DNA of 32,142 nt from Candidatus Dojkabacteria bacterium CG_4_10_14_0_2_um_filter_Dojkabacteria_WS6_41_15. GTDB taxonomy: Bacteria; Patescibacteriota; Dojkabacteria; GCA-002793355. The position numbers and the translations under genes were made by a program. How positions within the stretch are numbered: position 1 is the stretch's first letter; each line of letters opens with the position of its first letter. Positions 10,094 through 28,351 of the stretch are shown in pieces. The notes under the pieces were generated by a model. It was not told where the DNA came from. It was given only the letters and a program-made list of their open reading frames with translations, and searched no databases. The stretch lies in assembly GCA_002793355.1 (NCBI GenBank), contig PFQB01000098.1, positions 1 to 32,142 of the forward strand, in the 5' to 3' direction.

Positions 10094-10106
10094 AACTGTA
10101 TTAATT

Positions 10107-10721: not shown

Positions 10722-10738
10722 GCAGTTTTTTCATTTCG

Positions 10739-10747
10739 TGCTATAAT
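10739..10747 (+). promoter_or_regulatory. Extended -10 promoter element (TGcTATAAT) for the proS T-box leader
   Basis: TGCTATAAT is read directly at 10739-10747. Confidence 0.5.
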
Positions 10748-10753
10748 TCTTCC

Positions 10754-11003
10754 ATTACGCAACGAACAGGAATAGTAGCGCGTCGTAAACTTTCGCATAG
10801 TGTGAAAAAACGACAAACCAACCCGCCTGGGAGCGTTCGAGAAACCAAGTAATAAACATGTTGCTTGCTAACTCGACTGGCGAAGCAGGAAATCTTCGAC
10901 AATAAGCCGAGTTTTTCACTCGGGAAGTTAGGGTGGTACCACGAGTTTCTCGTCCCAAACGTATGCTTTCGCGGTGCGAAGGTTATATTAGTTTATTGGC
11001 GAG
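10754..11003 (+). promoter_or_regulatory. T-box riboswitch leader upstream of proS
   Basis: Canonical T-box sequence AGGGTGGTACCACGAG. It folds as an antiterminator-type element: A1 GGG(10931-33)/CCC(10954-56), a 7-nt bulge TGGTACC (10934-40), and A2 ACGAG(10941-45)/CTCGT(10949-53). A Stem III-like hairpin CCGAG(10907-11)/CTCGG(10919-23) precedes it. It lies upstream of an aminoacyl-tRNA synthetase gene. Confidence 0.75.
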
Positions 11004-11006
11004 AAC

Positions 11007-12746
11007 ATGAAATTTTCAAAAATGCTCACGAAGACGTTAAAGTCTTCAAAAACGTTCGATAGTATTAATGCCACTTATTTAACTCGTGGCGGCTTTATTG
11101 ACCAAACCATGTCCGGAGTGTATTCCTACTTGCCTCTTGGTTGGCGTGTTCTGCACAAAATTGAAAATATAGTTCGTGAAGAAATGGACACAATCGCGGA
11201 AGAAGTCTTTTTACCTTCCATGGTCCCTTTTGATATTTGGCAAACAACCGGACGTATTGATTCTGTTGATGTATTGATGAAAGCCGTACCAGCCAATGCC
11301 ATGTCGAAAGAAAGAAATGATGCAGAATACATCCTTAATTGCACACATGAAGATACCATTACCCCAATTGCAAAGAAATTTGCAACTTCATATAGAGAAT
11401 TGCCAAAAGCGGTATATCAAATTCAGACAAAGTTTCGCAACGAAGCGCGTGCCAAAGCTGGAATTCTACGAGGGCGAGAATTCCGAATGAAGGATTTGTA
11501 TTCCTTCCATGCAAGTGTTGAGGATTTCAAGCGATACTATGAGAAATCAAAAGAAGTGTATATGTCGGCGTTTAAACGACTAGGCTTGGGAAAAGACACG
11601 GTTATTGCTGCTGCTTCGGGTGGTGATTTTACTGACGATTATTCTCATGAATTTCAGACGAAATGTGAGGCAGGCGAAGACACACTTTTCTATGTTTCTA
11701 GCACACAAGAGACGTTTAACAAAGAAATTGCCCCAGCAAAAGCGGTCAAACTTTCTAAAGACACTAAGCAAAAGCCACTTGAAAAAGTTTTCGGCGAAGG
11801 TATTATCGGTGTTGACGATTTGTGCAAGTTTATGGGAATTACTCCTGAAGAAACCACCAAAACACTTATCTTCGAAACTGAAAATGGCCCAATAATCTGC
11901 TCAATTCGTGGTGATTACGATGTTAACGAGTTGAAGCTTAAGAAAGTAGCTGGGGTGAAGTCTCTCAAGCTTGCAAGTGAAAAAGTGGTGAAAAAGGTTA
12001 CTGGATCAATTATCGGTTATGCCGGAGTATATAATTTACCAAAAGGAATTCCTGTTTATATTGATGATTCCTCTGCCGATTTGGTTAACTTTGAAACAGG
12101 TGCGAATGAAGCACATTATCACATGAAGAATATGAACTGGGACAGGGACGTGAAGCGACCTGCAAAGTTCTATGATATTAAGGTAGCGAAGGTAGGCGAT
12201 ATATATCCAGAAACTGGTGAGGTATATGATACTTTCCGAGCCGCTGAGGTCGGTAATATATTTCCTTTGTATACTAGATTCTCTGACGCCGTTGGTTACA
12301 AATATACCGATGATAAGGGGAATTTACAGCCAGTGTACATGGGAAGCTATGGCTTAGGAACTACTCGTGTTATGGGAGTTCTTGTAGAAAAATTCCATGA
12401 CGATAAGGGAATCATCTGGCCTATTCAAGTTGCACCGTATATCGTTCACCTCGTAACTTTGGGAGAATCTACTGAGGTAATGGAGCTAGCAACCAGGGTG
12501 TACGATAATTTGCTTAAAAACAAGGTGGAAATTGTTTGGGATGATCGCACTTCTGTTTCCGCGGGTGAAAAATTCACCGACGCAGACCTTATTGGCTGCC
12601 CAATTCGCTTGACCATTAGTGCAAGAAGCCTTGAAAAGAATGGCGTTGAAATTAAGGCACGTTCTAGAGCAGAGAGCAAGATAATCAGTGAAGTAGAAGT
12701 GCTCAAATCTGTGGAAACCTTAGCAGACGAGTTGCTTAACGAGTAA
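11007..12746 (+). CDS. proS: Prolyl-tRNA synthetase (bacterial type with an inserted editing domain)
   Basis: 579 aa. Class II motifs (FRNEARAKAGILRGREFRMKD; GSYGLGTTRV) and a C-terminal anticodon-binding domain. Confidence 0.95.
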   Translation: MKFSKMLTKTLKSSKTFDSINATYLTRGGFIDQTMSGVYSYLPLGWRVLHKIENIVREEMDTIAEEVFLPSMVPFDIWQTTGRIDSVDVLMKAVPANAMSKERNDAEYILNCTHEDTITPIAKKFATSYRELPKAVYQIQTKFRNEARAKAGILRGREFRMKDLYSFHASVEDFKRYYEKSKEVYMSAFKRLGLGKDTVIAAASGGDFTDDYSHEFQTKCEAGEDTLFYVSSTQETFNKEIAPAKAVKLSKDTKQKPLEKVFGEGIIGVDDLCKFMGITPEETTKTLIFETENGPIICSIRGDYDVNELKLKKVAGVKSLKLASEKVVKKVTGSIIGYAGVYNLPKGIPVYIDDSSADLVNFETGANEAHYHMKNMNWDRDVKRPAKFYDIKVAKVGDIYPETGEVYDTFRAAEVGNIFPLYTRFSDAVGYKYTDDKGNLQPVYMGSYGLGTTRVMGVLVEKFHDDKGIIWPIQVAPYIVHLVTLGESTEVMELATRVYDNLLKNKVEIVWDDRTSVSAGEKFTDADLIGCPIRLTISARSLEKNGVEIKARSRAESKIISEVEVLKSVETLADELLNE

Positions 12747-12751
12747 TTCCT

Positions 12752-12779
12752 TTGCAAAAGCATATTAATTGTGTATAAT
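12752..12779 (+). promoter_or_regulatory. Promoter of a leaderless rpsU transcript (TTGCAA-16-TATAAT)
   Basis: -35 TTGCAA 12752-57 and -10 TATAAT 12774-79. The ATG at 12786 lies 7 nt after the -10 box. Confidence 0.5.
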
Positions 12780-12785
12780 TCGACC

Positions 12786-13022
12786 ATGGCAGTTATTACA
12801 GTACATCAAAATGAACCAATCGACTCTGTCCTCAGACGTTTTCAGCGACAAGTTATTAAAGAAGGCATTATCTCTGATGTTTTAGACAAGCGTTGTCACC
12901 TTTCAAAATCCGAGGCAAGGCGAGTAAAAGTCCACGAATTGGAACGTTCTGCTAAGAGGAAACGACGACGATCAAAGAGCAAGCCAAGAACATCCGTACA
13001 CGTCAAGAAGAAAATGTTTTAG
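12786..13022 (+). CDS. rpsU: 30S ribosomal protein S21
   Basis: MAVITVHQNEPIDSVLRRFQRQV plus a basic tail, typical of S21. The upstream ATG at 12771 sits inside the -10 box and is rejected. Confidence 0.9.
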   Translation: MAVITVHQNEPIDSVLRRFQRQVIKEGIISDVLDKRCHLSKSEARRVKVHELERSAKRKRRRSKSKPRTSVHVKKKMF

Positions 13023-13027
13023 TTCGC

Positions 13028-13483
13028 ATGAAGCTTGACTATTCACTAACCACGAAACAACACAAGACTGAAGTTTTACGTGTATTGGATTTCCTTTTGC
13101 AGCCCGCCATAATCCAGCTCTTGACGTATTCGCCACAATTGGCAGCGAAGAGCAAGAATCAGACCGTTTTCATCAACGTGGTGGGTACTAGCCGAATGAA
13201 ATCGTTAAACAATAAATTCCGTCAAAAAGAAACTTCCACTGATGTGCTTAGTTTCGAGTTATACGATAACGGCATTATGGGAGAATTGTATATTTGTCCC
13301 GACGATATAAGCAAAAACGCAAAAGCACTTGGGCATAGTTTCGAAAATGAATTGCTAGAAATAATTATTCATGGGCTGCTGCACTTGAGTGGGTACGACC
13401 ATTCGGATGAAATGTTCGACTGGCAAAAAAAGTTAACTGACCGTATACTGAAAGAATATGAAAATACTAGTAGGTCTCGGTAA
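13028..13483 (+). CDS. ybeY: Endoribonuclease YbeY
   Basis: HGLLHLSGYDH metal-binding motif; 151 aa. Confidence 0.9.
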   Translation: MKLDYSLTTKQHKTEVLRVLDFLLQPAIIQLLTYSPQLAAKSKNQTVFINVVGTSRMKSLNNKFRQKETSTDVLSFELYDNGIMGELYICPDDISKNAKALGHSFENELLEIIIHGLLHLSGYDHSDEMFDWQKKLTDRILKEYENTSRSR

Positions 13484-14021
13484 TCCCGGGAAAGAATACG
13501 AAAGAACGCCTCACAACGCGGGTTTTATTACGCTTGATCTATTAGCAGTAAACCTTCGTGGGCTTGGTTATGTCGTCGAGGATTGGCACGAAATCAAAAA
13601 AGAGAAAAGCATATTAAGTGAGGTTTTTTCGGGCGATGGTCGTAGAATCGCCGTATTAGTGAAACCGCAAACCTATATGAATCTTAGTGGTGGAGCAGTG
13701 CAGCAAGTTATGGCAAAGTATGGCGTTAAAAGTGCAGAAGATGTCCTAATTATCTATGACGAACTCGATATCGCCCTCGGCCTGTTCAAATATTCGCCGA
13801 TTCGTAATTCCCGCACGCATAAAGGAATCGGCTCGGTAATTTCCACAGTTGGAAAAACCGTACAATCATTCAGAATTGGCGTTGACAATCGCACAATCCG
13901 TTATATTCCGGGGCAGGATTACGTGGTAATGGCATATACAACAGCGGAGCTTTCTTCGCTATCGCAGGCAGCAGATAAGGGTATTGCCCAACATGTGCTG
14001 CCTTTCCTCGGACTGGTATAA
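13458..14021 (+). CDS. pth: Peptidyl-tRNA hydrolase
   Basis: MKILVGLGNPGKEYERTPHNAGF N-terminus, typical of Pth. Overlaps ybeY by 26 nt. Confidence 0.9.
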   Translation: MKILVGLGNPGKEYERTPHNAGFITLDLLAVNLRGLGYVVEDWHEIKKEKSILSEVFSGDGRRIAVLVKPQTYMNLSGGAVQQVMAKYGVKSAEDVLIIYDELDIALGLFKYSPIRNSRTHKGIGSVISTVGKTVQSFRIGVDNRTIRYIPGQDYVVMAYTTAELSSLSQAADKGIAQHVLPFLGLV

Positions 14022-14050
14022 TAGATAACTGCTAATTTAAAGATTATCCT

Positions 14051-14629
14051 ATGTCGTTACCAATCACGTTTACAGGAAGAGGATTCGATGTTACAGATCC
14101 GATAAAAAAATACGTCGAAGATAAATTACTCAAATTGCCTCATATTGAATTGGCAACCCAGATTGATCTTGAAGTTGGTAAAACAGTTTTTCACAAAGGA
14201 GCTGCTAAAGATTTCTATGTTCGTATTCTTATTACACTTCCTAAAGCTGTAGTTCGAATGAAAAAGGAAGGCGAGGACGTTTATGTATTGTTCGATGATA
14301 TGGCTCCAAGTTTACATGAGAAGTTAGTTCACTATAAGGACAACTTCAGAAAATGGGAAGGTGCGGAGACATGGCCAGAAACTGCAGTCGTAGAGGATGT
14401 AAAAGAGGAAGCGAAACTAGAGGACTCCTCCAGTGCAATATACGCAGGATATGTCCCAAAAATTCGCCGAAAAGTTATTACCGAGATGGCACCAATGTCA
14501 GTTACTGAAGCAATTGAAAGAATGGAACTTCTAGACAAAGACTTTTTCATTTTCAAAGATGTTCAGTCTGGAAATATTGCAGTTGTAGTGAAGAATGGAA
14601 GTGAGTACGAGATGGTAGTGGCTGATTAA
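14051..14629 (+). CDS. hpf: Ribosome hibernation promoting factor (long HPF)
   Basis: N-terminal S30AE/RaiA fold sequence, plus a C-terminal dimerisation domain (MSVTEAIERMELLDKDFFIFKD). Confidence 0.9.
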   Translation: MSLPITFTGRGFDVTDPIKKYVEDKLLKLPHIELATQIDLEVGKTVFHKGAAKDFYVRILITLPKAVVRMKKEGEDVYVLFDDMAPSLHEKLVHYKDNFRKWEGAETWPETAVVEDVKEEAKLEDSSSAIYAGYVPKIRRKVITEMAPMSVTEAIERMELLDKDFFIFKDVQSGNIAVVVKNGSEYEMVVAD

Positions 14630-14631
14630 AT

Positions 14632-14738
14632 CTTAAAGTATAAAGATTAAAGTATAAATCAATAATGGTGGATATTATTTGCCTCGTCCGATTTTTAACT
14701 TTCAGTCTTTAAACTTTGCGCTTTATTCTTTATCCTTT
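14632..14738. repeat. Heptad-periodic AAAG / CTTT repeat arms forming a long imperfect inverted repeat between convergent genes
   Basis: AAAG occurs at 14635, 14642 and 14649, with AAAT at 14656 (period 7). CTTT occurs at 14707, 14714, 14721, 14728 and 14735 (period 7). Arms 14635-14652 and 14721-14738 pair at 16 of 18 positions. An inner hairpin is formed by AATAAT(14661-66)/ATTATT(14674-79). Confidence 0.6.
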
Positions 14739-15561
14739 ATTTCGTTACGTCTTTGCTGAACAACCTTTTCACTAACTCGATACTTTTAAGGAACTTGTAA
14801 CTTTTGTTTGTTTCCGAGGTTAAGGTGTTATTTGCTGAGTTGTACCCTTCCATTGCTTTGGTAAGCCATTCCTGTCGCTTGGTGGTAAGGTTGCTTTGTT
14901 TAATGGCATCAATAATTTGCGTTTTAACATCAGCCAACTTCTTGTCGGTAAATTGCGTCTTATTTTCGTCGAAGTACGCTTGAATTTCTTTGTCTGTCGG
15001 TTCTACAGCAGTACCGTTAATTAGCTTGTCGAGTGTTACTGTTATCTTTACGTAAGCTCGATATTCTGCTTCGGTAATTCCGCTATTCTTAAGCTCGGCT
15101 TTAAAGGCTTCGTCTGTGGTGATTCCCGCTTTCTTTTTATCGGCCTCGATTGCAGCGTTAACATCGGCATCGGTAACTTTAAGCTTTTTATCTTTTGCAC
15201 CTTGTGCAATTGCAGACTTAGCTAACATTTCGTTTAATACTGGATTTCCTTGTGCTGCATCTTGCTTTTGTAATTCATTAAGGTATGCGGAACGAGAAAC
15301 ATCAGTATCTTTAAAAAACGCAACATATTGAGAGGTAATCGATGTTTGAATAACCCAGTCAAGGGCAGGAATAAGGGCTAAGGCGATAACAAAGCCAACC
15401 GCGAACTTTATTAGCGTTTCCTTTTTTATTGAAAAAGCTATTGGACGTTTTGGTGCCTCTTTTACTGAGGTTGCAACCGTTGCTTCCTGCATTTTTGGGG
15501 CGGTATCTACTGATCTTTTCTTGTCTTTCATATGACGACGTTTTAGATTAATGTGGTCCAT
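14737..15561 (-). CDS. Membrane-anchored SurA_N/PrsA-like chaperone domain protein with no obvious parvulin domain
   Basis: One TM helix (FAVGFVIALALIPAL) followed by helical repeats typical of PrsA/SurA N-terminal domains (TDADVNAAI, TEAEYRAYV, TDKEIQAYFDENK). An alternative start is at 15531. Confidence 0.6.
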   Translation of the reverse strand: MDHINLKRRHMKDKKRSVDTAPKMQEATVATSVKEAPKRPIAFSIKKETLIKFAVGFVIALALIPALDWVIQTSITSQYVAFFKDTDVSRSAYLNELQKQDAAQGNPVLNEMLAKSAIAQGAKDKKLKVTDADVNAAIEADKKKAGITTDEAFKAELKNSGITEAEYRAYVKITVTLDKLINGTAVEPTDKEIQAYFDENKTQFTDKKLADVKTQIIDAIKQSNLTTKRQEWLTKAMEGYNSANNTLTSETNKSYKFLKSIELVKRLFSKDVTK

Positions 15562-15600
15562 TATAACAAAAATTCTGTAGAATCCAAGTGGGTTGCTAAC

Positions 15601-16974
15601 TTACAATAACCTCTTACGGGAGTCTGCTCCGTCTAAATGCCAGTAAATGCTTAACAATTGATTTCCATTGTAGACTTTCCCGTGATCAACTATTGCATAT
15701 TTTCCACCCCAACTATCGGTGCCATAATATACTCTTCCGTTAAGTGCCGCAAAAATTGGTGCACCCCAGCCATTTAACGAATAGGTTCTACCTTTTGATT
15801 GCCAACAAACGGGTGTTACAATTTGGTATTTCCGGGAACTGTCTTGGTTGCCTGCGGAGGTAGAAATTCCATCGATAGAGTAGCTATCATGAAATCCCCA
15901 GGTCATCAGCATGCCGGGTAATGGAGCTTTAGCACGCGAGTCTGTCACATATGAACCGGAAAGTTTTAATAATCCTGAGCTAAAAGGGTTGACGTTAGTA
16001 TAGTATGAGCTCTTGTTACCGTTTTTGCGCTCAATGAAGCCATAATGGATGTGAGCTCCGAAAGTACAGCCGGTATATCCTTCACGACCAATAACATTTC
16101 CTCTGCTTACTGCGGTTCCGTTACCTAACTTATTCGCTTCGAACAGCTGTATGGCTACCGAAAGTGCTTGGCGGTCCGCTGCATTTTGTTGCGAAATAAG
16201 CTTTGACCGCTCTGCTGCAAGTGTCTTCTCTTGTTTAGTAAGTTCAGCTAGAAGTGTCTGTTGTTTACCTCGCTGGCTTGCCAAGGTTGCGCGTAACTTG
16301 ATGATTTCTAAGTTTGCTCGTTCCATGATATCACGCTTTTCGATAATTGCGACTTGCGCCACGCCAAGGACTTTCTCTTCTGATGATAGTTGTGTTTGCA
16401 GGTTTGTAAATTGTGCAAAGCGGACCTTTTCTTGCTGTGATACATAATCGAAGTAGCGGAGCATTTCTAATGTCGAAATCAGGTCATTTTGTGCAAGCAA
16501 GTACCAAATCGGAATGCTGTTTACTTTATACGCCATTAGCGCAATTTCGTTCACTTTTTGCATCGAATTCTGCTTTTCCTGCTTCAGCGTGTCAATACGG
16601 TTTTTGGTTTCCGAGATATCTTCGCCAATATTGGTGATTTCGATACTTGCCAGTTCGATGTCAATTTGTCTTTGTGCCAGTTCGTTTTCGTTTGCAGTCA
16701 CTTGTGCGTTAATTTCATCGACTTGCGATTGAATGTCTCCTTCTTGAACTCTAACATTTTTTAGTGTTCCTTCAATTTTCTTTCGTTGTGCAACTAATTC
16801 ATTTCGTTTCGTTATCAAATAGTCATAGCATTTGCTTAATGAGTATCCAGCAGGGCAGTCATTTGCTGCACGAACAGGCAGTGGTGAAACACCAAAATAG
16901 GAGATTAACCCTATGGCAAACACAAGCAGGGTAGAAACTGTAAGAAGTCTTTTAGTTGTTTTTCCAATATGCAT
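15601..16974 (-). CDS. Coiled-coil M23 (LytM) peptidase, an EnvC/PcsB-like partner of FtsEX
   Basis: Signal/TM segment, a long coiled coil, and a C-terminal M23 signature (GREGYTGCTFGAHIHYGF). Located directly downstream of ftsEX. Confidence 0.8.
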   Translation of the reverse strand: MHIGKTTKRLLTVSTLLVFAIGLISYFGVSPLPVRAANDCPAGYSLSKCYDYLITKRNELVAQRKKIEGTLKNVRVQEGDIQSQVDEINAQVTANENELAQRQIDIELASIEITNIGEDISETKNRIDTLKQEKQNSMQKVNEIALMAYKVNSIPIWYLLAQNDLISTLEMLRYFDYVSQQEKVRFAQFTNLQTQLSSEEKVLGVAQVAIIEKRDIMERANLEIIKLRATLASQRGKQQTLLAELTKQEKTLAAERSKLISQQNAADRQALSVAIQLFEANKLGNGTAVSRGNVIGREGYTGCTFGAHIHYGFIERKNGNKSSYYTNVNPFSSGLLKLSGSYVTDSRAKAPLPGMLMTWGFHDSYSIDGISTSAGNQDSSRKYQIVTPVCWQSKGRTYSLNGWGAPIFAALNGRVYYGTDSWGGKYAIVDHGKVYNGNQLLSIYWHLDGADSRKRLL

Positions 16975-17002
16975 ATGTATTGCTGGCGTTTTGTAATCCG
17001 TA

Positions 17003-17920
17003 CTATTTTATATAGTGCTTCGTCGCAAAGAAGGCACAAAGATAGCCAATTAGGGCTCCTAATCCCAGTTCAATTGCACCAAACGCGACGAAGAACCACG
17101 ATGGGTAGAAAAGTGCCTGAAGTCCTACACTAGACATCATGTCGTGAATGAATTTGAAGAGAATATTATCTTGTAAGACAAGGTTTGCGACTAACCAAAT
17201 CACCATTATGGAAAAGAAAGATATTGACGCCGCAACTACACCGTAGACCGCACCTTGGTACATAAAGGGCATTGCCATAATTTTTGGATCTGCGCCTACT
17301 AAGTCCATAATTTCGATTTCTTGTGCAAAGCGGTTGATGGTAAACCCGATGGTTAAGTACACTAATATAATGGAAACGATGAACAAAAAGGCTGTTATAA
17401 CCAAACTGCTGACCGTAACGGTATTGCTAAATTGTCTGATTTTTTCGACGATATCCTGGAAAAATACTTTATCAATGATTAGTGCTCCTTTATTCTTTTC
17501 GTCATCAACCATCTGCACGAAAGGCTTGTAATCGGTATTTGGCCTTAGTTGCACGCGAAGGATGCGGATTTGGTTAGCGTCGAAGGCATATTGACCTTGC
17601 TGTTCTGGGGCAATGCCAATGCTGGTTAGGTACTGCTTTTGAATATCCGCCGAGGTAGAATAGGAAACCTTCATTACGCCGGTTTGCTTCTCAAGATATC
17701 CTTTAAAAATCAGAATATTTTCTTCTTTTTCCTTCGGGTCATAAAATATCGAGAGTGTTGGCTGACTTTGCAAGTAGGTTACGGCTTTTGTCGCAAACTC
17801 GTTCATGACAAAAAATAAGGTTCCTAACGAAAAAGTAACCGTGATAATTACGACGCTTGCGAGCGAAAGACCGGGGTTTCGTCGAATGTATTTAAAGGTT
17901 GTAGCCCACACAAGATTCAT
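17003..17920 (-). CDS. ftsX: Cell division permease FtsX
   Basis: Four-TM topology with a large first extracytoplasmic loop. Tightly packed directly downstream of ftsE (one nucleotide, 17921, separates the two ORFs). Confidence 0.85.
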   Translation of the reverse strand: MNLVWATTFKYIRRNPGLSLASVVIITVTFSLGTLFFVMNEFATKAVTYLQSQPTLSIFYDPKEKEENILIFKGYLEKQTGVMKVSYSTSADIQKQYLTSIGIAPEQQGQYAFDANQIRILRVQLRPNTDYKPFVQMVDDEKNKGALIIDKVFFQDIVEKIRQFSNTVTVSSLVITAFLFIVSIILVYLTIGFTINRFAQEIEIMDLVGADPKIMAMPFMYQGAVYGVVAASISFFSIMVIWLVANLVLQDNILFKFIHDMMSSVGLQALFYPSWFFVAFGAIELGLGALIGYLCAFFATKHYIK

Positions 17921-17921
17921 G

Positions 17922-18794
17922 TTATGCCAAGTTTTTAAGGTTAGTCGCTAATTGTGAAATTTCTTTATCGGTAAACTTCAATTCATTTTTAAGGAAGTTC
18001 GGAGTTAAGTTGAGTAAATCTTCCTTCTCGTCTGGGTTAAGTGGGACTAGCTTCTGGATGAGTTCTGCAGGTAGAATTTTTGCCAGTTTTGCCATAAATG
18101 CCTTGGCAGATTTTTGTTCATTTGTAGGAGAGCTTTGAATCAACTCGCCGTTGTCCAGGTGCCAGTGGGTGTAGTCGTAGCGGTACACGAGTTCAAGATT
18201 GTGAGTGGTCATAATAATGCTGGTGCCCGCCTTATTGATTTTGCCCAACAAGGACATAATATTCTCGGTGTTATCAAGGTCAAGGTCACCTGTAGGCTCG
18301 TCTGCAATCAGCAGTTTTGGATTGTTAGCAATTGCCCGGGCGATGACCACTCGTCGCTTTTCTCCGCCTGATAACTGTTTAGGAAATAAACCTTTCTTAT
18401 CGATAATACCTACGTAATCCAAAAGGTATTCAACGGTTTTCTGCACTTCTTGCGGAGATTTATTCAGAATTTCCAGAACAAAAGCAACATTTTCGTAGAC
18501 ATTCTTGTGTTCTAACAGTTTATAGTCTTGGAAAACAACACCAACGGTGCGTCGGTATGACGGAATTAATTTGCGAGGCAATAATTCGATAGGAACAGTT
18601 TCAAAAACGATACTTCCTTTCGTTGGAAGTTCTTGGCGAATCAATAGTTTAATGAGTGTGGTTTTACCTGAGCCCGAAGGTCCGGTTAAAAAGACGAACT
18701 CACCTCGCTCTAAACCGAACGAAACATTTTTAAGGACAGGAATAACAATATTACCCTGTTTGTATAGTTTTGATAGTTTTGAAACGCGGAGCAT
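17922..18794 (-). CDS. ftsE: Cell division ATP-binding protein FtsE with an approximately 65-aa C-terminal extension
   Basis: Walker A GPSGSGKTT, ABC signature LSGGEKRR, Walker B LLIADEPTGDLD. Confidence 0.9.
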   Translation of the reverse strand: MLRVSKLSKLYKQGNIVIPVLKNVSFGLERGEFVFLTGPSGSGKTTLIKLLIRQELPTKGSIVFETVPIELLPRKLIPSYRRTVGVVFQDYKLLEHKNVYENVAFVLEILNKSPQEVQKTVEYLLDYVGIIDKKGLFPKQLSGGEKRRVVIARAIANNPKLLIADEPTGDLDLDNTENIMSLLGKINKAGTSIIMTTHNLELVYRYDYTHWHLDNGELIQSSPTNEQKSAKAFMAKLAKILPAELIQKLVPLNPDEKEDLLNLTPNFLKNELKFTDKEISQLATNLKNLA

Positions 18795-18800
18795 AGGAAG

Positions 18801-18809
18801 ATTGTAACA
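18801..18809 (-). promoter_or_regulatory. Extended -10 (TGtTACAAT on the minus strand) for a leaderless ftsE transcript
   Basis: The reverse complement of 18801-18809 is TGTTACAAT. The ATG of ftsE (18794) is exactly 7 nt downstream of the hexamer. Confidence 0.5.
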
Positions 18810-18847
18810 TACCGAGGATTAAGGTAGTGCTAATGCTTGAAAAGTAG

Positions 18848-18868
18848 TATAATTTCATTGCTTCCCCA
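18848..18868 (+). promoter_or_regulatory. -10 box plus conserved TCCCCA leader motif, copy 1
   Basis: TATAAT 18848-53, a 9-nt spacer, TCCCCA 18863-68, then 21 nt of AT-rich leader to the ATG at 18890. Confidence 0.5.
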
Positions 18869-18889
18869 CAATAATTTTTGTTTATAAAC

Positions 18890-19546
18890 ATGCCACGAAA
18901 TTTTCAGCCAGTGATTGTGGAGCCAACTCCTTTTCCATCAGAATCAAAATTTGTATTAGCAATTGAAGAACGCGTTGATGGATTCCTCCAAACAATGCTA
19001 AAAGAAGAAGAATACGTAAGTGTACAAACAGCACTATGTTCATCCAAAGGATGGGTTGATACAAGCAACCATTTCTATAAACCAAAATCAAACAAAGGAA
19101 CGGATCAGCCGCACAGAGTCAGGGAAGAAAACGTAAAAGCGCTCGATGGAACATTGTATGCATGTGTTACGCACGCATATGTGCCAGAAGCACAAGAAGA
19201 TATGGAGCTGGAGACTAGCCGGGTAATTCCCGTTGCAGGGCAACATGGTTCGGTCGAGTTAGTGTGTAGAACGTACCAAGACGGAGATTCAGATAAGAAC
19301 TGGTCGGTATCGGTTAGTCCCTATAATGGGACTCATTGGTCTCTTGAAGTGATGAGTAATGTTGATGATTCCAATAGTGCTTTACGTGTTGTTGGTCAGC
19401 ATGAAGCAAATGAAGAGTTTCTGAAACCATTTAGTACCTATTTGGGCATTTCGGTTGGAGAATTGAAGCAGCTTTTACACGAGCAAACGAATGCTCTGAA
19501 GGTTATTGAAAAAATTCGCGAAATTCTTTTTTCAGAAACAGCGTGA
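18890..19546 (+). CDS. Orphan protein, member A of a tandem paralogous triplet
   Basis: ORF with an ATG at 18890 (the TTG at 18878 is less likely). Its C-terminal block VVGQHEANEEFLKPFSTYLGISVGELKQL aligns with members B and C. Confidence 0.65.
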   Translation: MPRNFQPVIVEPTPFPSESKFVLAIEERVDGFLQTMLKEEEYVSVQTALCSSKGWVDTSNHFYKPKSNKGTDQPHRVREENVKALDGTLYACVTHAYVPEAQEDMELETSRVIPVAGQHGSVELVCRTYQDGDSDKNWSVSVSPYNGTHWSLEVMSNVDDSNSALRVVGQHEANEEFLKPFSTYLGISVGELKQLLHEQTNALKVIEKIREILFSETA

Positions 19547-19573
19547 GCATTGGTGTTGAGATTGTAGAAGTGG

Positions 19574-19592
19574 TATAACTAGAAGCTCCCCA
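19574..19592 (+). promoter_or_regulatory. -10 box plus conserved TCCCCA leader motif, copy 2
   Basis: TGgTATAAC (-10 hexamer at 19574-79), a 7-nt spacer, TCCCCA 19587-92, then 24 nt to the ATG at 19617. Confidence 0.5.
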
Positions 19593-19616
19593 CTATTTTT
19601 ATTAGGTACATTGACT

Positions 19617-20306
19617 ATGGCAGTAAAAGCAGCTAACGCGAATGGTTCAGAAGGGCTCACGACATCAATAAGGGCAAGCTTTCAATACGAGGACAATCGA
19701 TTAAGACGGGAAGTGACGGAAGAAAAGGTAGAACATGCGATTAAACAGGACCTCTCTTCACTAGCAATAAGACATTTAACCGAGCAAGAAATCGACGTGA
19801 TTCGACCTAAGAAGCAGAGTGAATTGGTCATAGAGGTTAGTAGCCCTAAGTGTCTTGGCTGTAAAAGGCAGATAGAGTATCACGCACATTTATTAGAAAG
19901 TGATAATGGCTTTTCTGTAGCATTTGACCATAAGCAGCGGGGGAAAGAGATTCTTTGTTCAGCAATTACTGTTTCAAGAGAATTTGCTGGTGTTGTTGCT
20001 GGAAATCCCAATAGTATTGTCATGAACATAGAAAGCAAGGGGGAACTTAACGAATACTCCAGGATTTCGGTGTCAATTCCCCAAGTTGACGCAACGAAGA
20101 CAGCAAAGTTAGTAATCTGCTTTCATGGATCCGTTGGTTGGGTAAATTGGAAAGACGAAATCAACAATGAAGAACTACTAGCGCTAATTCCGGATTTAAC
20201 ACCGGAGGACCTAAAGAACATGCATGTTGCTGCAACTCGTGACCGCGTATTTAACATTCTTCGCAGTATGCTATTCTTTAACAAGACGGTGGCTGAGGGG
20301 ACGTAA
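19617..20306 (+). CDS. Orphan protein, member B of a tandem paralogous triplet
   Basis: The ATG at 19617 is preferred over the TTG at 19611. C-terminal block INNEELLALIPDLTPEDLKNM. Confidence 0.65.
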   Translation: MAVKAANANGSEGLTTSIRASFQYEDNRLRREVTEEKVEHAIKQDLSSLAIRHLTEQEIDVIRPKKQSELVIEVSSPKCLGCKRQIEYHAHLLESDNGFSVAFDHKQRGKEILCSAITVSREFAGVVAGNPNSIVMNIESKGELNEYSRISVSIPQVDATKTAKLVICFHGSVGWVNWKDEINNEELLALIPDLTPEDLKNMHVAATRDRVFNILRSMLFFNKTVAEGT

Positions 20307-20365
20307 GCACTAGCGCATTGTTTAAGGTTATCAGTTAGTTATTGTAGGTAAACTGCCTGAAATGA

Positions 20366-20384
20366 TATAATTACTGACTCCCCA
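20366..20384 (+). promoter_or_regulatory. -10 box plus conserved TCCCCA leader motif, copy 3
   Basis: TGaTATAAT (-10 hexamer at 20366-71), a 7-nt spacer, TCCCCA 20379-84, then 22 nt to the ATG at 20407. A possible -35 TTGTAG lies 18 nt upstream. Confidence 0.5.
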
Positions 20385-20406
20385 AGTTAAATTACGCAAA
20401 TAGATT

Positions 20407-21108
20407 ATGCCAAGTGCTGATACAGAACATATTAGTAAGGAAAAAATTTTCGTTTATAAAGACCCACAAGGTGGACCAGTCTCTGAAAACGATAAAAGGG
20501 TAGTTACAAGAGATATTGCTACGAAAATAGGTAAGCTTGTAAAGGAGTCCTTTCCAAAAGCATTTTTGGATGAAGTCTTGGCTGAATGTCCGGAACTGGA
20601 GTGTAGTGCAACGACACCTAGAAAACATCTTGATGGTAATTTTAGGGCAATTAAATATACAGCAACTGCTAATTATCCCACAAAGAACGGTGCAGCTGTA
20701 AGAATTAGTCTCAACAGAGAACCCGAGCGACAAGCCAGCCGAAAGATTGTTGTTAAAAGAGAAAATGAAGGTAAGTTCGGCATATGCTCAGTAAAGTATG
20801 TTACCGCATGGAATCCCGGAGCTAATCAACATACAGAGTTTGTCGAGGTCGCTGTCATAGGAGATGATTATAAGCCAGCTTCGTTGATTATTTCCAGAAG
20901 AGCTGATGGAAAACGAAATGTAAAAATTGTTGGGGAAGGTGCAACTAATCCTTCGGCCATCGGAGAGATAAAAGATTATCTTGGTTTAAGAAGCGATATC
21001 ACTCTTATGAAGCCAGGAGCTGAAGATGTATGGGAATTTTCGCCAGATGCTGAAGACATCGAAGGAAAAGTGCTCTTAATGGTGTTCGCCAATCGTTGCG
21101 GAGATTGA
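20407..21108 (+). CDS. Orphan protein, member C of a tandem paralogous triplet
   Basis: C-terminal block IVGEGATNPSAIGEIKDYLGLRSD aligns without gaps to member A (VG..N.........YLG[IL]). Confidence 0.65.
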   Translation: MPSADTEHISKEKIFVYKDPQGGPVSENDKRVVTRDIATKIGKLVKESFPKAFLDEVLAECPELECSATTPRKHLDGNFRAIKYTATANYPTKNGAAVRISLNREPERQASRKIVVKRENEGKFGICSVKYVTAWNPGANQHTEFVEVAVIGDDYKPASLIISRRADGKRNVKIVGEGATNPSAIGEIKDYLGLRSDITLMKPGAEDVWEFSPDAEDIEGKVLLMVFANRCGD

Positions 21109-21126
21109 GAAACTTATCTGTAGGGA

Positions 21127-22047
21127 TTAACGAAGCAGTTCTCTCCACACAAATGCCCCAAGTTCTCCTTTCAATACTTTTTCAACTTGTGAAGTTTTAT
21201 ATCCAATTCTTGTATCTTTTACGTAGTTTAACCCAAAATCGTAGGTGCGAATGACGGATTCCAGAGAAGTCGCCTTGTAGCTTGCAAGTTCTTTGGCTTG
21301 GCGTTCTTCTTCTCTTTTTAGGAGTGCAGCTCTTAGCAAAGTAAGGGCATTTTGTTTATTTTGCAACTGACTTCGAGATTGACTGTTTTTGATCATAATT
21401 CCCGTCGGGATGTGCTTGACGATAACTGCAGTTTCCACCTTGTTCACATTCTGTCCACCGGGGCCACTAGTACGTCCGGTCTTTATTTCCAAATCGCTTT
21501 CTTTAATGAGTACCGAATCTTTGGCGCTTGCCGTTGGATAAATCTGTACTAGGCAGTTAGAAGTCTGCATTTTTCCCTTTGTCCCGAAGGGTGACTTACG
21601 TTCTAAACGGTGTGAACCTTCCTCTTTTTGAAAGGCAAGGTACGCATAAGAATCCGAAATTTCAATGCTGGCATGAGTTATTCCTGCGGTCGGATCCGGT
21701 TCATATTCCAATAATTCATATTTTGCCCCCAAGTGCTTTAAATACTCAATGTACATGGTGGTAAGCATATCGGTCCAGTCTTGGGCATCTAACCCACCTT
21801 GGCCAACGCGAAGATCAAGGATACAACCACGGGATTCGAAACTACTAACGTTATTTTGCAATATTTCGGGAAGAATTCGCTGCGTTTCTGCATGCACTTC
21901 TGCAAGCAATGAAGCGTCGGATACGGCCATTTGCCATAACTCCTGCAACGAAATACCCTGGGGGGTATGCCATAGCTTGCTCTCGTAGGCGAATAAATCG
22001 GGTAATTCCTTCTCGGTCAATTGGTTAAATATGTTGTGCAATAGCAT
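21127..22047 (-). CDS. prfB: Peptide chain release factor 2 (short N-terminal domain, no frameshift site seen)
   Basis: SPF tripeptide (RKSPFGTKGK) and GGQ motif (SGPGGQNVNKVETAV). 306 aa. Confidence 0.9.
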   Translation of the reverse strand: MLLHNIFNQLTEKELPDLFAYESKLWHTPQGISLQELWQMAVSDASLLAEVHAETQRILPEILQNNVSSFESRGCILDLRVGQGGLDAQDWTDMLTTMYIEYLKHLGAKYELLEYEPDPTAGITHASIEISDSYAYLAFQKEEGSHRLERKSPFGTKGKMQTSNCLVQIYPTASAKDSVLIKESDLEIKTGRTSGPGGQNVNKVETAVIVKHIPTGIMIKNSQSRSQLQNKQNALTLLRAALLKREEERQAKELASYKATSLESVIRTYDFGLNYVKDTRIGYKTSQVEKVLKGELGAFVWRELLR

Positions 22048-22069
22048 AGGTAGGGTATAATGAAATCAG

Positions 22070-23656
22070 ATGAAACCTGTCCTACTGATTATAATGGATG
22101 GACTCGGCGTTGGCAAAGATTATGCAGGCAACGCAGTGCTCCATGCAAAAACCCCCACGCTAGATCGATTGTGGACGCGCGCAGATAAGCGGTTGCTTCT
22201 TGGCGCTTCCGGCCCAGATGTTGGGCTTCCTGCTGGTGTTCCGGGCAACAGCGAAGTTGGCCATTTGAACCTTGGCGCCGGTACGGTTGTGTATCAAATG
22301 ATTTCTACCATTAATGATTCGATTATTGACGGATCATTTTTCAAGAGTGAGGTGTTAATTCGCATGGCAAAGGACGTTAATCAGAATCACCGAACGCTGC
22401 ACATTATGGGGCTTTTGTCGGCTTCTGGTGTACACGCGGATGTCCGTCACCTTTTTTCGCTCATGGAATTTTGCCACAAGAATAAGATTGATCCTGTTTT
22501 TCATATTATTACCGACGGTCGGGATACCCCACGCTTCGAAGCCCGTTTTTATCTAAAGAAACTGCGAGAAAAGATGTTCCAATATGGCATGAAACGGATT
22601 GGAAGTGTTAGTGGTCGTTTCTACGCTATGGATCGTAATAATGCCTGGGATAGAATCAAACTTGCGTACGATGCAATGGTTGGGCGCAGTGGACTGAAAG
22701 AAACCGAACCCGAGGTCGCTTTAGAACATGCCTATGCACGGCAAGAAGATGACGAAACTCTGACTCCAACAATTATTGTTGACACCAATGGAAACCCAGT
22801 CGGTCCTGTTACGCAAAACGATGTGGTCCTATTCTTTAATTTTCGCGAAGATCGGGCACGTCAAATCACCAAGGCGTTCGTATCACCAACCGAAAAGTTT
22901 GCAGAGTTCGATCGCCCCTTTGTTATCGAACGCTTTATTACCATGTCAGGGTATGAAGAGGGCCTTCCTGTCGATGTTCTGTTCTCGTCAAAAGAGAATT
23001 ATGAACCAATTTCGGACACGATATCAAAAGCAGGCAAGAAACAATTTCATATTGCAGAAACAGAAAAATATGCCCACGTTACGTACTTTTTTAATGGGGG
23101 GAGAGAGGCGACTGCCGAAGGTGAAGAATTCAGTATAATCCAGTCGCCAAAAGTAAAAGATTATTCAACGGTACCGGAAATGTCCGCCTATCAAGTTACT
23201 GATGTTTTGCTTGAAAGGATGCGAAAAAAGCAGGATGACTTCTATCTGTTGAACTTGGCAAATCCTGATATGGTTGGCCACAGCGGAAAACTTATGCAAA
23301 CTGCGCGTGCTGTCGAAGTTACCGATCGTTGTGTGTATTTTTTGGTAAAAGAAATGCTGTCGCAAGGTGGGCAAGTGCTTATTACTGCAGACCACGGCAA
23401 CGCCGAACAAAAAATAAACCCTGTAACTGGCGAACCAGACAGAAACCATACGTTAAACTTGGTCCCGTTTATGCATATTGTAAATCCTGATGTTTTCGAT
23501 GATGGCAAATGGAATGATGGGACGAATCTTCTTAGGCTGGTATATGATGCAACCGTAATGGACAAAAACGGCATACTTTCTGATATTCCCGCAACTATTC
23601 TCAAGCTGTTGGATGTAAAAGGAGCGGACAGTATGACGGGGCAGAGTTTGGTGTAG
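22070..23656 (+). CDS. gpmI: 2,3-bisphosphoglycerate-independent phosphoglycerate mutase
   Basis: 528 aa. GNSEVGHLNLGAG and ADHGNAE metal-site motifs. TATAAT at 22056-61 lies 8 nt before the ATG. Confidence 0.95.
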   Translation: MKPVLLIIMDGLGVGKDYAGNAVLHAKTPTLDRLWTRADKRLLLGASGPDVGLPAGVPGNSEVGHLNLGAGTVVYQMISTINDSIIDGSFFKSEVLIRMAKDVNQNHRTLHIMGLLSASGVHADVRHLFSLMEFCHKNKIDPVFHIITDGRDTPRFEARFYLKKLREKMFQYGMKRIGSVSGRFYAMDRNNAWDRIKLAYDAMVGRSGLKETEPEVALEHAYARQEDDETLTPTIIVDTNGNPVGPVTQNDVVLFFNFREDRARQITKAFVSPTEKFAEFDRPFVIERFITMSGYEEGLPVDVLFSSKENYEPISDTISKAGKKQFHIAETEKYAHVTYFFNGGREATAEGEEFSIIQSPKVKDYSTVPEMSAYQVTDVLLERMRKKQDDFYLLNLANPDMVGHSGKLMQTARAVEVTDRCVYFLVKEMLSQGGQVLITADHGNAEQKINPVTGEPDRNHTLNLVPFMHIVNPDVFDDGKWNDGTNLLRLVYDATVMDKNGILSDIPATILKLLDVKGADSMTGQSLV

Positions 23657-23675
23657 CAAGATGTGGTACGGATAC

Positions 23676-23704
23676 TTGTCTGTTTTTGCTAGATATCCTA
23701 TAAT
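23676..23704 (+). promoter_or_regulatory. Promoter TTGTCT-17-TATAAT driving a leaderless transcript
   Basis: -35 at 23676-81 and -10 at 23699-704. The ATG at 23710 is only 5 nt after the -10 box. Confidence 0.55.
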
Positions 23705-23709
23705 ACGCG

Positions 23710-24549
23710 ATGGCGGTAGTAAAACCAGCACAAGAGCCTTGGAAAGAAGGTAAACCTCAATCGTATTCAATCAGTGAAATTACTGAAGCAAGAAAAGTTG
23801 GGCTAAGAAGTGACCCAACACTAAGAGCGCAAATGACCCCTATCGAAGGGAGAACGGCTTCTCGTGGCATAGCTTATGTGAATTTAGGCTTAATTGCGAA
23901 GCATGGCGCAGACCAAAGCGACGTAATTTTTGGTGGGCACGACGACAGTTGGAGTGTTGCTGCTGTAAACACCTCTTGTCTTGATTCTGTTGATGGTATG
24001 GTCGGTTCAGGTAGAGCAATTATCGAGACGAATAGTCAACGACCAAAGGTTAATACTACATATGCACTAGATACAGATTTGAAAGATCCCAATGCTATTT
24101 GCGTTGATATCGAAAGTGAGGCGTTGCCCGGTAAGCACGGCTTAGGTTTGGCACTTTGGACAAAGAGTGGCAATAAACCTGTGCAAATTGACTTAACAGA
24201 TCCAGATTTAAGTGCGCTGGCAATAGTGAACAACTCATGTTTGTTGCCTATACTGTATGAATTGAAAGTGCCTACAGATACAGGAACTATCGACATTTCA
24301 CTCGAAATCATCATGACGAACCAGCAGCTAGATATACGTATTATCAGTGCTGAAGCACACTTTAGTATTCAAGTTCCTAAAGCTTCAATGTCTGTCTTTA
24401 ACGAATTAACTTCTGACGTGTTTGACTCATTATGTCAAGGCAAAGTATTTAACCCTTATCGCCCGAAAGTATACAAATTCAATAAGGATAGTTCTCCTTC
24501 GAATCTGGGAATTTCAGCAGTTGGTTCTGGCTCGTGGTATCTTTCATAA
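23710..24549 (+). CDS. Orphan cytoplasmic protein, function unknown
   Basis: 279-aa ORF with its own promoter and no recognisable motif. Confidence 0.6.
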   Translation: MAVVKPAQEPWKEGKPQSYSISEITEARKVGLRSDPTLRAQMTPIEGRTASRGIAYVNLGLIAKHGADQSDVIFGGHDDSWSVAAVNTSCLDSVDGMVGSGRAIIETNSQRPKVNTTYALDTDLKDPNAICVDIESEALPGKHGLGLALWTKSGNKPVQIDLTDPDLSALAIVNNSCLLPILYELKVPTDTGTIDISLEIIMTNQQLDIRIISAEAHFSIQVPKASMSVFNELTSDVFDSLCQGKVFNPYRPKVYKFNKDSSPSNLGISAVGSGSWYLS

Positions 24550-24578
24550 TCTGCAATGAGTACAAGCACATAAATTAT

Positions 24579-24587
24579 TGATATAAT
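24579..24587 (+). promoter_or_regulatory. Extended -10 TGaTATAAT driving a leaderless transcript
   Basis: Element at 24579-24587. The ATG at 24593 is 5 nt after the -10 box. Confidence 0.55.
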
Positions 24588-24592
24588 ATAGG

Positions 24593-25495
24593 ATGTTTGA
24601 CAACTTGGAGAATCTTGGTGGTGATTCTGAAGATTCACTTGCTAGGTTAATGCAAGATGCGAGAGAAAATGGATTACAGATTCAGACTATACCAGGGAAT
24701 CATTCTATTGGAGGAGGTCGTTCAATATTCGTTTTTGTTACCCATCCTCGCCAAGATGGAGATGTTCAATTGGCTTATTATGAAGTTGAGGACACATATT
24801 ATGAACTTGGTGAGCATACTGTGGACTGTTCTCTTGCAGGTGAAGGCTTTCAGTGTGAAAGTGGAGAACGTACTATCTTAACTGGCCAGAATCCTGGAGC
24901 TGAATGCCATTCAATAATAACATTTCCGACTGCAGGTGGCACACCAAATATGGCGATGAATTTTCAGGCATCCTCCTATATGCTTGCAAATGGAGGTAAA
25001 ACTTCGCAATCTGTTGAAATTACGATTGGGGCAGCGTCTGTAAGTCTAAATCTTGACGATTTTGAATTAATTGATGATTCTGCCCTTGAAGCAGTCGAAA
25101 CAGATTCTGGCGCTGAAGTTGGGGCTGAGGATGATATTGTATTTGATATTGATGAGAAGGGGCTTCATCTAGTCGAGAGCTCGCGATGCCAAGAAGAAAT
25201 AGTCCAGGATATCGATTTGACTTCAGCATTATTTTTCGATGAAGTACGAAATACAAGAAAATACCATTTAGAAGGCTTGGCACATCCTATTGCTGTTACC
25301 TGCTTTCGCTACGCCTCGCATACTCTTATCACGTTGCGCTATCAAGGAACAAAAATAAAAGTGGATTTTCCTGTTCCGACAAGCGAGGGATTATTAGATA
25401 TTGAAGAAATGGTTGGGTATGCACTGCAAGATGGAAATCTACCAATGTTTGCGGTCCCAAAAGTGGTTGATTTGCAAAGACACCTTGCGCAATAA
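24593..25495 (+). CDS. Orphan protein with a central acidic segment, function unknown
   Basis: 300-aa ORF with the acidic stretch DDFELIDDSALEAVETDSGAEVGAEDDIVFDIDE. No motif recognised. Confidence 0.6.
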   Translation: MFDNLENLGGDSEDSLARLMQDARENGLQIQTIPGNHSIGGGRSIFVFVTHPRQDGDVQLAYYEVEDTYYELGEHTVDCSLAGEGFQCESGERTILTGQNPGAECHSIITFPTAGGTPNMAMNFQASSYMLANGGKTSQSVEITIGAASVSLNLDDFELIDDSALEAVETDSGAEVGAEDDIVFDIDEKGLHLVESSRCQEEIVQDIDLTSALFFDEVRNTRKYHLEGLAHPIAVTCFRYASHTLITLRYQGTKIKVDFPVPTSEGLLDIEEMVGYALQDGNLPMFAVPKVVDLQRHLAQ

Positions 25496-26890: not shown

Positions 26891-27163
26891 TTAAGGATTA
26901 TCATTGGAACTTGGTATTTCGAATAAAATTCCAGTTGATTGAAATTTTTCATACAGTGCATCAAGAATAGTTTCTTCAAGGTCTTTAGGTAAGCGCTTGG
27001 GTGTACCTAATATATCACCAGAACGAACCCCACTGACAACAACGATACATGTGCGAATTTCAGGTGGTAATGATATTGAAACACTACAGTAATAATTTGC
27101 AAAGTTTTGTGAACAGAAATCTTCTGTGAATGTTTGAATGTCTTGTTTGGTTATTTCTTTCAT
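26891..27163 (-). CDS. Small hypothetical protein (90 aa)
   Basis: The only ORF longer than 60 aa in the 1.56 kb gene-poor region. On the minus strand a TGtTACAAT element ends 6 nt before its ATG, the leaderless arrangement used elsewhere in this window. Confidence 0.4.
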   Translation of the reverse strand: MKEITKQDIQTFTEDFCSQNFANYYCSVSISLPPEIRTCIVVVSGVRSGDILGTPKRLPKDLEETILDALYEKFQSTGILFEIPSSNDNP

Positions 27164-27914: not shown

Positions 27915-28029
27915 CTAAAGAAGATATTTAAGAATCTCGTAGTAGCTCCAATTTGTAGAGCAATGGGCCGTTAACTCATTGGTTACAGGTGCGAATCCTG
28001 TCTACGAGATTCTTAGTTATCTTCTTTGG
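27915..28029 (+). ncRNA. Extended leader/trailer helix that coaxially continues the acceptor stem of the tRNA-like element
   Basis: 27915-27935 pairs with 28009-28029: about 21 bp with one mismatch and two G-U pairs. The discriminator base (28009) is included in the pairing. Confidence 0.5.
27936..28009 (+). tRNA. tRNA-Asn(GUU)-like cloverleaf, non-canonical (C33, G55, no GG in the D-loop, no encoded CCA); possibly a tRNA mimic or pseudo-tRNA
   Basis: Manual fold. Acceptor CTCGTAG/CTACGAG. U8 A9. D-arm GCTC-CAATTTGTA-GAGC. Anticodon arm ATGGG-CCGTTAA-CTCAT. Variable loop TGGTT. T-arm ACAGG-TGCGAAT-CCTGT. Discriminator A. Confidence 0.5.
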
Positions 28030-28351
28030 GGAATTATATTAGGGACAAGTACTGGAAATTTTTCCATATCATTTATATGATAGTGCGGTAAACCTTACTT
28101 GTCAACAATGCTTATTGTAACCCACATTACCGCTCACTGTCAATACTATAGGTTAGCCATTCCCCATTATTCCTCTTAACTCCAACCTAAGTTATTTCAT
28201 TGTTTTTCTATCTCTTGCGGTCAGGGGATAGTTACCTAGAAAGATGAGGTTGACAGCAAGATTACAATGTTAGATACTCATTAATGGTATTGAAACTACT
28301 TGAGGTGGCAATCCTCACAATTGCACCTTTGCTTGCAAAGATTAGACTTCC

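Follow-up and report, generated by a model that had tools for sequence, protein, structure and literature searches.

A conserved C-rich motif before three orphan genes inserted between prfB and ftsE in a Dojkabacteria-like genome

Why would three neighbouring genes, whose proteins resemble nothing known, share the same C-rich hexamer at nearly the same distance from a putative -10 box? The question is raised by genes A, B and C, a triplet located between ftsE and prfB in contig PFQB01000098.1 (assembly GCA_002793355.1), a groundwater metagenome contig with a G+C content of 40%. The whole stretch that was analysed, 32,142 nt in length, is referred to below as the window. An earlier reading of the sequence alone (the sequence-only reading) took the three genes for tandem paralogues, each with its own promoter and a leader of the form TATAAT-N7-9-TCCCCA-N21-24-ATG. 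We find that the motif and its conservation are real and that the insertion history of the locus is new information, while paralogy of the three proteins is not supported statistically.

Three orphan genes and a shared C-rich motif

The features of the locus are as follows, where B' and C' are the counterparts of B and C in a variant lineage.

18795..18889, no strand: divergent spacer between ftsE (minus strand) and gene A, with the predicted ftsE promoter and the predicted promoter and leader of gene A inside
18848..18853, plus strand: -10 hexamer TATAAT of gene A, with TAG before it and so no TG extension
18863..18868, plus strand: TCCCCA of gene A in the context GCTTCCCCA, 9 nt past the -10 hexamer and 21 nt from the ATG
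18890..19546, plus strand: gene A, encoding a 218-aa orphan protein; preceding spacer 95 nt
19571..19579, plus strand: extended -10 element TGGTATAAC of gene B (hexamer TATAAC, final base C instead of T), kept as TGGTATAAG in B'
19587..19592, plus strand: TCCCCA of gene B in the context GCTCCCCA, 7 nt past the -10 hexamer and 24 nt from the ATG; TCCCCCA in B'
19617..20306, plus strand: gene B, encoding a 229-aa orphan protein; preceding spacer 70 nt
20363..20371, plus strand: extended -10 element TGATATAAT of gene C (hexamer TATAAT), with a possible -35 TTGTAG 18 nt upstream; kept as TGGTATAAT in C'
20379..20384, plus strand: TCCCCA of gene C in the context ACTCCCCA, 7 nt past the -10 hexamer and 22 nt from the ATG
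20407..21108, plus strand: gene C, encoding a 233-aa orphan protein; preceding spacer 100 nt
21109..21126, no strand: gap of 18 nt between the stop codons of C and the convergent prfB, without a terminator; right-hand edge of the insert

The three open reading frames (ORFs) of 218-233 aa, their coordinates and their spacers are as the sequence-only reading gave them. Of its leader formula, the spacings and the A+T-rich leader lacking a Shine-Dalgarno (SD) sequence stand, while the hexamer does not hold for B, which has TATAAC.

The window has three copies of the composite pattern TATAAY-N6-10-TCCCCA, one before each of A, B and C and none elsewhere; 0.04 copies are expected, and a count of three was reached in 0 of 100 shuffles. 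The hexamer TCCCCA by itself shows no enrichment in the window (13 copies vs 10 expected). The composite pattern had no match in 64 unrelated or syntenic loci, and among the matches listed in a scan of IMG/VR for the whole pattern there were only single chance matches per contig and no clusters. Two further copies of TCCCCA lie near a -10-like sequence in a neighbouring cassette, as TACTAT-N11-TCCCCA on the plus strand and as TATAAT abutting TCCCCA on the minus strand (28150-28166 and 28018-28038); neither has the spacing of the triplet.

The evidence for selection comes from orthologous loci. Two contigs of the variant lineage (L199 and L200) carry B', 72% identical to B, and after it C', the only known relative of C (42% identity, E=2e-56). 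The leader of C' reads TGGTATAAT-TACAGAC-TCCCCA-N20-ATG (hexamer TATAAT, gap N7), and that of B' reads TGGTATAAG-TAGATGC-TCCCCCA-N23-ATG (hexamer TATAAG, gap N7) with one extra C. When the B-C spacers of the two lineages are compared, 23 of 26 nt agree in a block that opens shortly before the -10 box and closes with TCCCCA, against 45% identity in the other 74 columns (P about 3e-4 after correction for window position). As the motif is retained before C', whose protein is only 42% identical to C, in a spacer that is otherwise 45% identical, and is retained before B' as well, the comparison indicates that the C-rich motif is a cis-element that purifying selection has kept at a constant position between -10 box and start codon. 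The sequence-only reading had proposed such a selected element, and conservation in orthologous loci bears it out. In all five instances (A, B, C, B' and C') the sequence C-U-(U)-C-C-C-C-(C)-A comes right after a purine 6-7 nt past the hexamer. Provided that the hexamer is a -10 box, the conserved element would be the first ~8 nucleotides of the transcript (about +1 to +8); promoter function, start site and a regulatory role of the motif are all predicted from sequence.

The leaders of A, B and C consist of 75-86% A+T and contain no GGAG. Genes A and B have alternative TTG starts 6-12 nt upstream, and the ATG is the start used in public gene calls. The leaders are no more structured than their shuffles (z from -0.6 to +1.7), and no Rfam match or conserved structure was found for them. 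In these respects they resemble SD-less, A/U-rich leadered mRNAs that depend on S1 or on structure-free initiation in genomes with many leaderless genes; unlike those, they add a conserved C-rich 5' element. We rejected a hairpin presenting the motif as a C-rich loop, as the 3-4-bp inverted repeats around the motif in A, B and C are absent in C' and partly lie upstream of the predicted start. The C-run might pair at long range with G-rich coding sequence, an idea that was likewise rejected: such pairing is seen in A and C', is missing from B and C, and has no significant z-scores. A segment of gene C (20921-20936, AAAAATTGTTGGGGA) is 86% complementary to the leaders of A (TCCCCACAATAATTTTT) and B (CCCCACTATTTTTA), a match that may have arisen by chance or may mark a site of intramolecular or antisense pairing. 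Shortly before the B promoter (19487-19554), the stop codon of gene A lies within an imperfect inverted repeat of 28 nt (71% complementary), and no T-run comes after this repeat.

Setting these leaders in their surroundings, a TATAAT-like box 5-8 nt before the ATG, without an SD sequence, is present at no fewer than five window genes, that is at least ftsE, gpmI, the orphans at 23710 and 24593, and the ORF at 26891, and these neighbouring genes look leaderless by that layout. A, B and C do not have it, their distance from -10 to ATG being 35-37 nt, and hidden leaderless starts were rejected for all three because no -10 box is found 5-8 nt before their ATG. Against at least five window genes that look leaderless, the triplet is conspicuous in being leadered and SD-less. 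The other leadered genes of the window (hpf and the ORF at 1723) have no C-rich 5' element.

Insertion history and the orphan proteins

How did the triplet come to lie where it does? In three relatives (L014, L015 and L016; RF2 70-76% identical) prfB is followed by ftsE on the same strand, 25-60 bp away. The ftsE promoter TATGTTACAAT-N5-6-ATG is common to the window, L014 and L016, and L015 has the near-identical TATGCTACAAT; in the window this leaderless promoter, with TACAAT on the minus strand at about 18801-18806, is read as ancestral. As no gene separates prfB from ftsE in these relatives, and ftsE has the same leaderless promoter there, the synteny indicates that the triplet is a lineage-specific accessory insert of 2.3 kb, antisense to prfB-ftsEX, in the short prfB-ftsE spacer. 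In a fourth relative (L017) the same spot holds a 310-aa ORF (613-1545) that is glycosyltransferase-like by eye only. Since the spacer is empty in three relatives, holds another gene in L017 and holds the triplet in the window, it is an insertion hot spot.

Such a locus resembles the strain-specific islets of orphan ORFs (ORFans) found at intergenic hot spots. The cassette is absent from the syntenic site in its close relatives, as a mobile island would be, and another gene is present there in another relative; the triplet has no known homologues, and variant strains show allele replacement and insertions of insertion sequence (IS) elements. The triplet differs from ORFan islets in having no integrase, tRNA site, flanking repeats or composition shift, in its antisense position inside the conserved prfB-ftsEX string, and in the predicted promoter module that each gene has for itself.

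The IS elements are found only in variant strains. A gene for an IS200-type transposase (Y1_Tnp) truncates B' in L199, L012 and L202, and in one strain with B' so truncated C' keeps its own module; the C-terminal end of the Y1_Tnp gene lies directly upstream of the N-terminally truncated B' (L199 2-169, L012 1-153, L202 1-40). In L202 the B'-C' spacer contains an IS-like element of 1.3 kb (626-1920) with a 380-aa ORF that has no Pfam match and with inverted ends of ~65 bp, each holding two copies of GTAGACAA-N7-8-TGATACCG. In L011 (1-46) one end of this IS-like element is found 35 nt before the -10 box of B, and sequence of the element is also seen at L012 715-790. The promoter-motif block adjoining each IS insertion is intact, which fits self-contained expression units in a dispensable and changeable locus. 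At the contig ends of L199 (1505-1533) and L200 (1617-1650), the frame of C' runs past the end of C into the G+C-rich, hairpin-like CTCCCCGCCCTCACGGACGGGG, which may be the edge of another inserted element.

The products are three cytoplasmic true orphan proteins of ~220-230 aa, and all three are real coding genes. A and C retrieved only themselves from an index of 5.8 billion proteins, as did a HMMER search of C against 1.84 billion representative proteins. A, B and C had no match in Pfam, NCBIfam, PHROGs, PADLOC (none of its models at E<=1), PDB sequences, GenBank phages or IMG/VR, and relatives of the triplet proteins were found neither in a set of one genome per species nor in 2 Mb of loci. 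The absence of a recognisable domain, noted from the sequence alone, thus agrees with the empty Pfam, NCBIfam, PHROG and PADLOC searches. Gene A encodes no signal peptide or transmembrane segment and is identical in 22 of the 22 carrier contigs read. That C is a real gene follows from its alignment with C' at E=2e-56.

Gene B is variable. Its alleles in the population show 96, 73 and 70-72% aa identity, and the 73% allele sits inside near-identical flanks. Between this allele and that of the window the ratio of nonsynonymous to synonymous divergence (dN/dS) is 0.30 with a dS of 0.52, and the neighbouring C on the same contig differs at 3 of 405 bases. One contig carries a mosaic of these two B alleles. 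From the dN/dS value, the near-identical C beside a divergent B and the mosaic contig, we conclude that B is, as judged by these comparisons, a real gene under purifying selection whose divergent alleles are exchanged by recombination. Mutagenesis by a diversity-generating retroelement was rejected as the source of this variation, the substitutions being spread along the gene and not adenine-specific. The sequence-only reading had placed the genes in a fast-evolving family of the interaction or immunity type. The B alleles, at 73% aa identity in near-identical flanks and with one mosaic, fit a fast-evolving accessory locus; the immunity part finds no backing, as there is no PADLOC, phage or structural match.

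Readings of the shared element

What could the C-rich element do? The reading that we lean towards, by a small measure, is that the three units of this accessory orphan-gene cassette are coupled in their expression by a common cis-element, located where transcription starts or at the 5' end of the mRNA. Each gene would then be its own unit, beginning with a -10-dominated (mostly extended -10) sigma-70-type promoter, followed by the element R-C-U-(U)-C-C-C-C-(C)-A (RCUCCCCA) at +1 to +8 of the predicted transcript and by an A/U-rich, unstructured, SD-less leader of 20-24 nt. The C-rich element would serve as the shared signal by which the three genes are controlled together, either as a DNA operator for a repressor or activator overlapping +1, or as a 5'-terminal RNA tag read by an RNA-binding factor. 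We regard these two forms as equally open.

Several observations weigh against this coupling of three self-contained units. The final T of the -10 hexamer is near-invariant in bacterial promoters of this type, and the hexamers of B and B' (TATAAC and TATAAG), though preceded by TGG, lack it; A has TATAAT with neither TG nor a good -35, and only C and C' fit the extended -10 (TGnTATAAT) fully. No terminators were found between the genes. Because the promoters of A, B and B' are imperfect and terminators between the genes are missing, some units may depend on read-through. We found no RNA sequencing run that holds the locus, and no candidate for a regulator emerged. Neither flanking repeats nor an integrase accompany the insert, and its G+C content of 0.39-0.43 is like that of its flanks, so that none of these hints at how the cassette arrived. 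Promoters belonging to the single genes, as the sequence-only reading had them, are plausible in that the units separated by IS elements keep their promoter-motif block, and are in doubt where A is without TG and the hexamers of B and B' end in C and G.

The alternative that survives best concerns origin, not mechanism, and is compatible with a shared cis-element. It is the model of the sequence-only reading, in which A, B and C are tandem duplicates of one promoter-leader-gene unit, the proteins having diverged past recognition and the leader motif having been kept by selection. Similar lengths (218-233 aa) and the promoter-leader module common to all three speak for it. In single BLASTP comparisons A and C matched at E=0.012, B and C at E=1.6 and A and B at E=7.9; within the window proteome A and C match at E=0.5, a value that unrelated pairs also reach. 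In that comparison the orphan at 10107-10721, considered as a remote paralogue, resembled none of the three. With 1000 shuffles as the reference, z stayed below 3 for local and semi-global scores alike, and hhalign probabilities were at most 1.6%. Profile comparison aligned the C-family with A (C 163-197 / A 156-190, P=0.033) and with the B-family (C 77-124 / B 81-127, P=0.15), and a profile of the B-family found nothing in A or C. Under a hidden Markov model of C and C', A outscored 497 of 500 shuffles, while for B the figure was only 463 of 500. The best nominal value, that of A vs C, is thus a p of about 0.006-0.03, and no test is significant after allowing for multiple comparisons; the HMMER search of C among 1.84e9 proteins retrieved neither A nor B.

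Structure prediction adds little to this. AlphaFold2 models of A, with a predicted local distance difference test score (pLDDT) of 39, and of B, with a pLDDT of 47 and a predicted template modelling score (pTM) of 0.44, are both below pLDDT 50 and too uncertain to count, although they share the order of an N-terminal helix, 6-8 strands and three C-terminal helices; Foldseek found nothing significant for the B model in PDB and BFVD (template modelling scores <=0.23). A central hydrophobic-x-Cys strand, which had been put forward as a shared trait of the proteins, is not conserved in C'. Paralogy, as far as pairwise and hhalign profile alignment can tell, does not emerge, and B is unrelated to the others by sequence. 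The sequence-only reading had named a lack of significant similarity among the proteins as grounds for refutation, and by that measure its claim of tandem paralogues fails. We keep common descent in consideration, above all for A and C, since the weak matches are collinear, and we take the duplication model as a tentative account that is clearly less probable than the coupling of the units.

For the coupling reading, the RNA form can be made more specific. RCUCCCCA could be a 5'-terminal RNA tag, like BoxA or the "start module" of a phage, by which a host factor would recognise the messages of a horizontally moving orphan cassette amid mostly leaderless mRNAs. Candidate readers are Nus factors, S1 or a KH-type C-binding protein, or a cassette protein acting on its own messages. 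In the early promoters A1 and A3 of phage T7 and in repeated phage promoter cassettes, as here, a short conserved sequence 7-9 nt past a sigma-70-type -10 box is repeated before several genes of one mobile block; unlike T7-type start modules, the triplet comes with no phage genes or viral relatives that we could find, and its motif is C-rich, ~8 nt long and present in three copies. We think such a tag unlikely. If it were true, it would be a cassette-private route to expression or silencing in Patescibacteria.

Somewhat less probable still is that GCUCCCCA at the 5' ends is a BoxA-like site, which would load Nus factors, with one of two effects: these SD-less and poorly translated mRNAs would be shielded from Rho, or their translation would be repressed. 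BoxA is the RNA that binds NusB-NusE, is 8 nt long (PMC3177189) and has the consensus GYTCTTTAANA in gamma-proteobacteria; it regulates genes other than rRNA, including a toxin gene, and the double mutation C4T/T6C has been used to inactivate it in E. coli (10.1101/091223). The element of the triplet is likewise 8 nt, pyrimidine-rich and located in the 5' leader just downstream of a predicted promoter, begins GCUC and ends in A, so that GCUCCCCA shares G1, Y2, U3, the critical C4 and A8 with GYUCUUUA, a consensus that is gamma-proteobacterial. However, the U5-U7 core is CCC here, and the first base and the length vary: C and C' begin with A, not G, and one base is added in gene A (a U) and in B' (a C). 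Only 5 of the 8 positions match in B, and fewer in A, C and C', which leaves the element outside the BoxA consensus.

That CCCCA is the -10 element of an alternative, sigma-32-type sigma factor, with TATAAT lying in its spacer or belonging to an overlapping second promoter, we consider very improbable. A promoter of this type has the form TTGAAA-N13-17-CCCCATNT. CCCCA is invariant in the five instances, a GAA-rich hexamer lies upstream of each (TTGAAA, TAGAAG, TCGAAA, CTGAAA, GGGAAT), and TATAAC and TATAAG of B and B' are poor sigma-70 boxes. Yet the distance from the GAA hexamer to CCCCA varies between 16 and 21 nt, against 13-17 nt in the class, the bases past CCCCA do not fit ATNT, and TATAAT is the working -10 box of this genome at leaderless genes. 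RpoH is moreover a proteobacterial factor and is not known in Patescibacteria.

Weakest of all is reiterative transcription, in which a C-run near +4 to +7 would make initiation sense CTP or ATP levels: a run of 4-5 C does lie within the first 8 predicted nucleotides, its length varying (4 vs 5 C) and its position kept, but in the known cases (pyrBI, codBA, upp and pyrG) the run usually begins at +1 to +3, and nothing ties the orphan genes to nucleotide metabolism.

The surrounding contig and the meaning of the locus

The window contains topA, rpsB, proS, pth, hpf, ftsEX, a gene for an M23 peptidase, prfB, gpmI, murJ and a gene for a Type ISP restriction enzyme; no rRNA operon lies in it. Its nearest genomes by RF2 (70-76% identity) belong to Patescibacteria and include a complete one of Candidatus Dojkabacteria, and on the strength of these matches the host genome of the triplet is a Dojkabacteria-like member of the Patescibacteria. 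A second site in the window may have a similar history. In L014 the next large ORF after gpmI encodes 440 aa on the same strand and is murJ-sized by length alone, so that the two leaderless orphans between gpmI and murJ in the window (23710-25495) look like another lineage-specific insert.

Strain variants (L004, L005, L007 and L008) show tight clusters of 8-15 substitutions relative to the window and are otherwise identical to it. The clusters, at 16357-16486, 17095-17183, 17816-17915 and 24081-24129, fall inside the M23 peptidase gene, ftsX and the orphan 23710-24549, and look like short recombination tracts. In a small public run (X20) the depth over window positions 9000-24000 goes from 0 to about 19,000-fold within 15 kb. 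A cloned insert, considered for this run in view of its 5000-fold depth, was set aside, as such uneven depth over 15 kb fits a single-cell amplified genome; read as a single-cell amplified genome of this organism, X20 could supply the missing genome.

The immediate impact of these findings is modest. On present evidence they describe an accessory cassette with a testable regulatory element rather than a system of a new kind. Little experimental work has been done on gene-expression signals in Patescibacteria, whose genomes are tiny. A selected, cassette-specific motif at a predicted transcript start, beside leaderless genes, is a concrete and small target for reporter and RNA-binding tests. 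The locus also shows that orphan genes can have an insertion hot spot even within a conserved string of cell-division genes, prfB-ftsEX.

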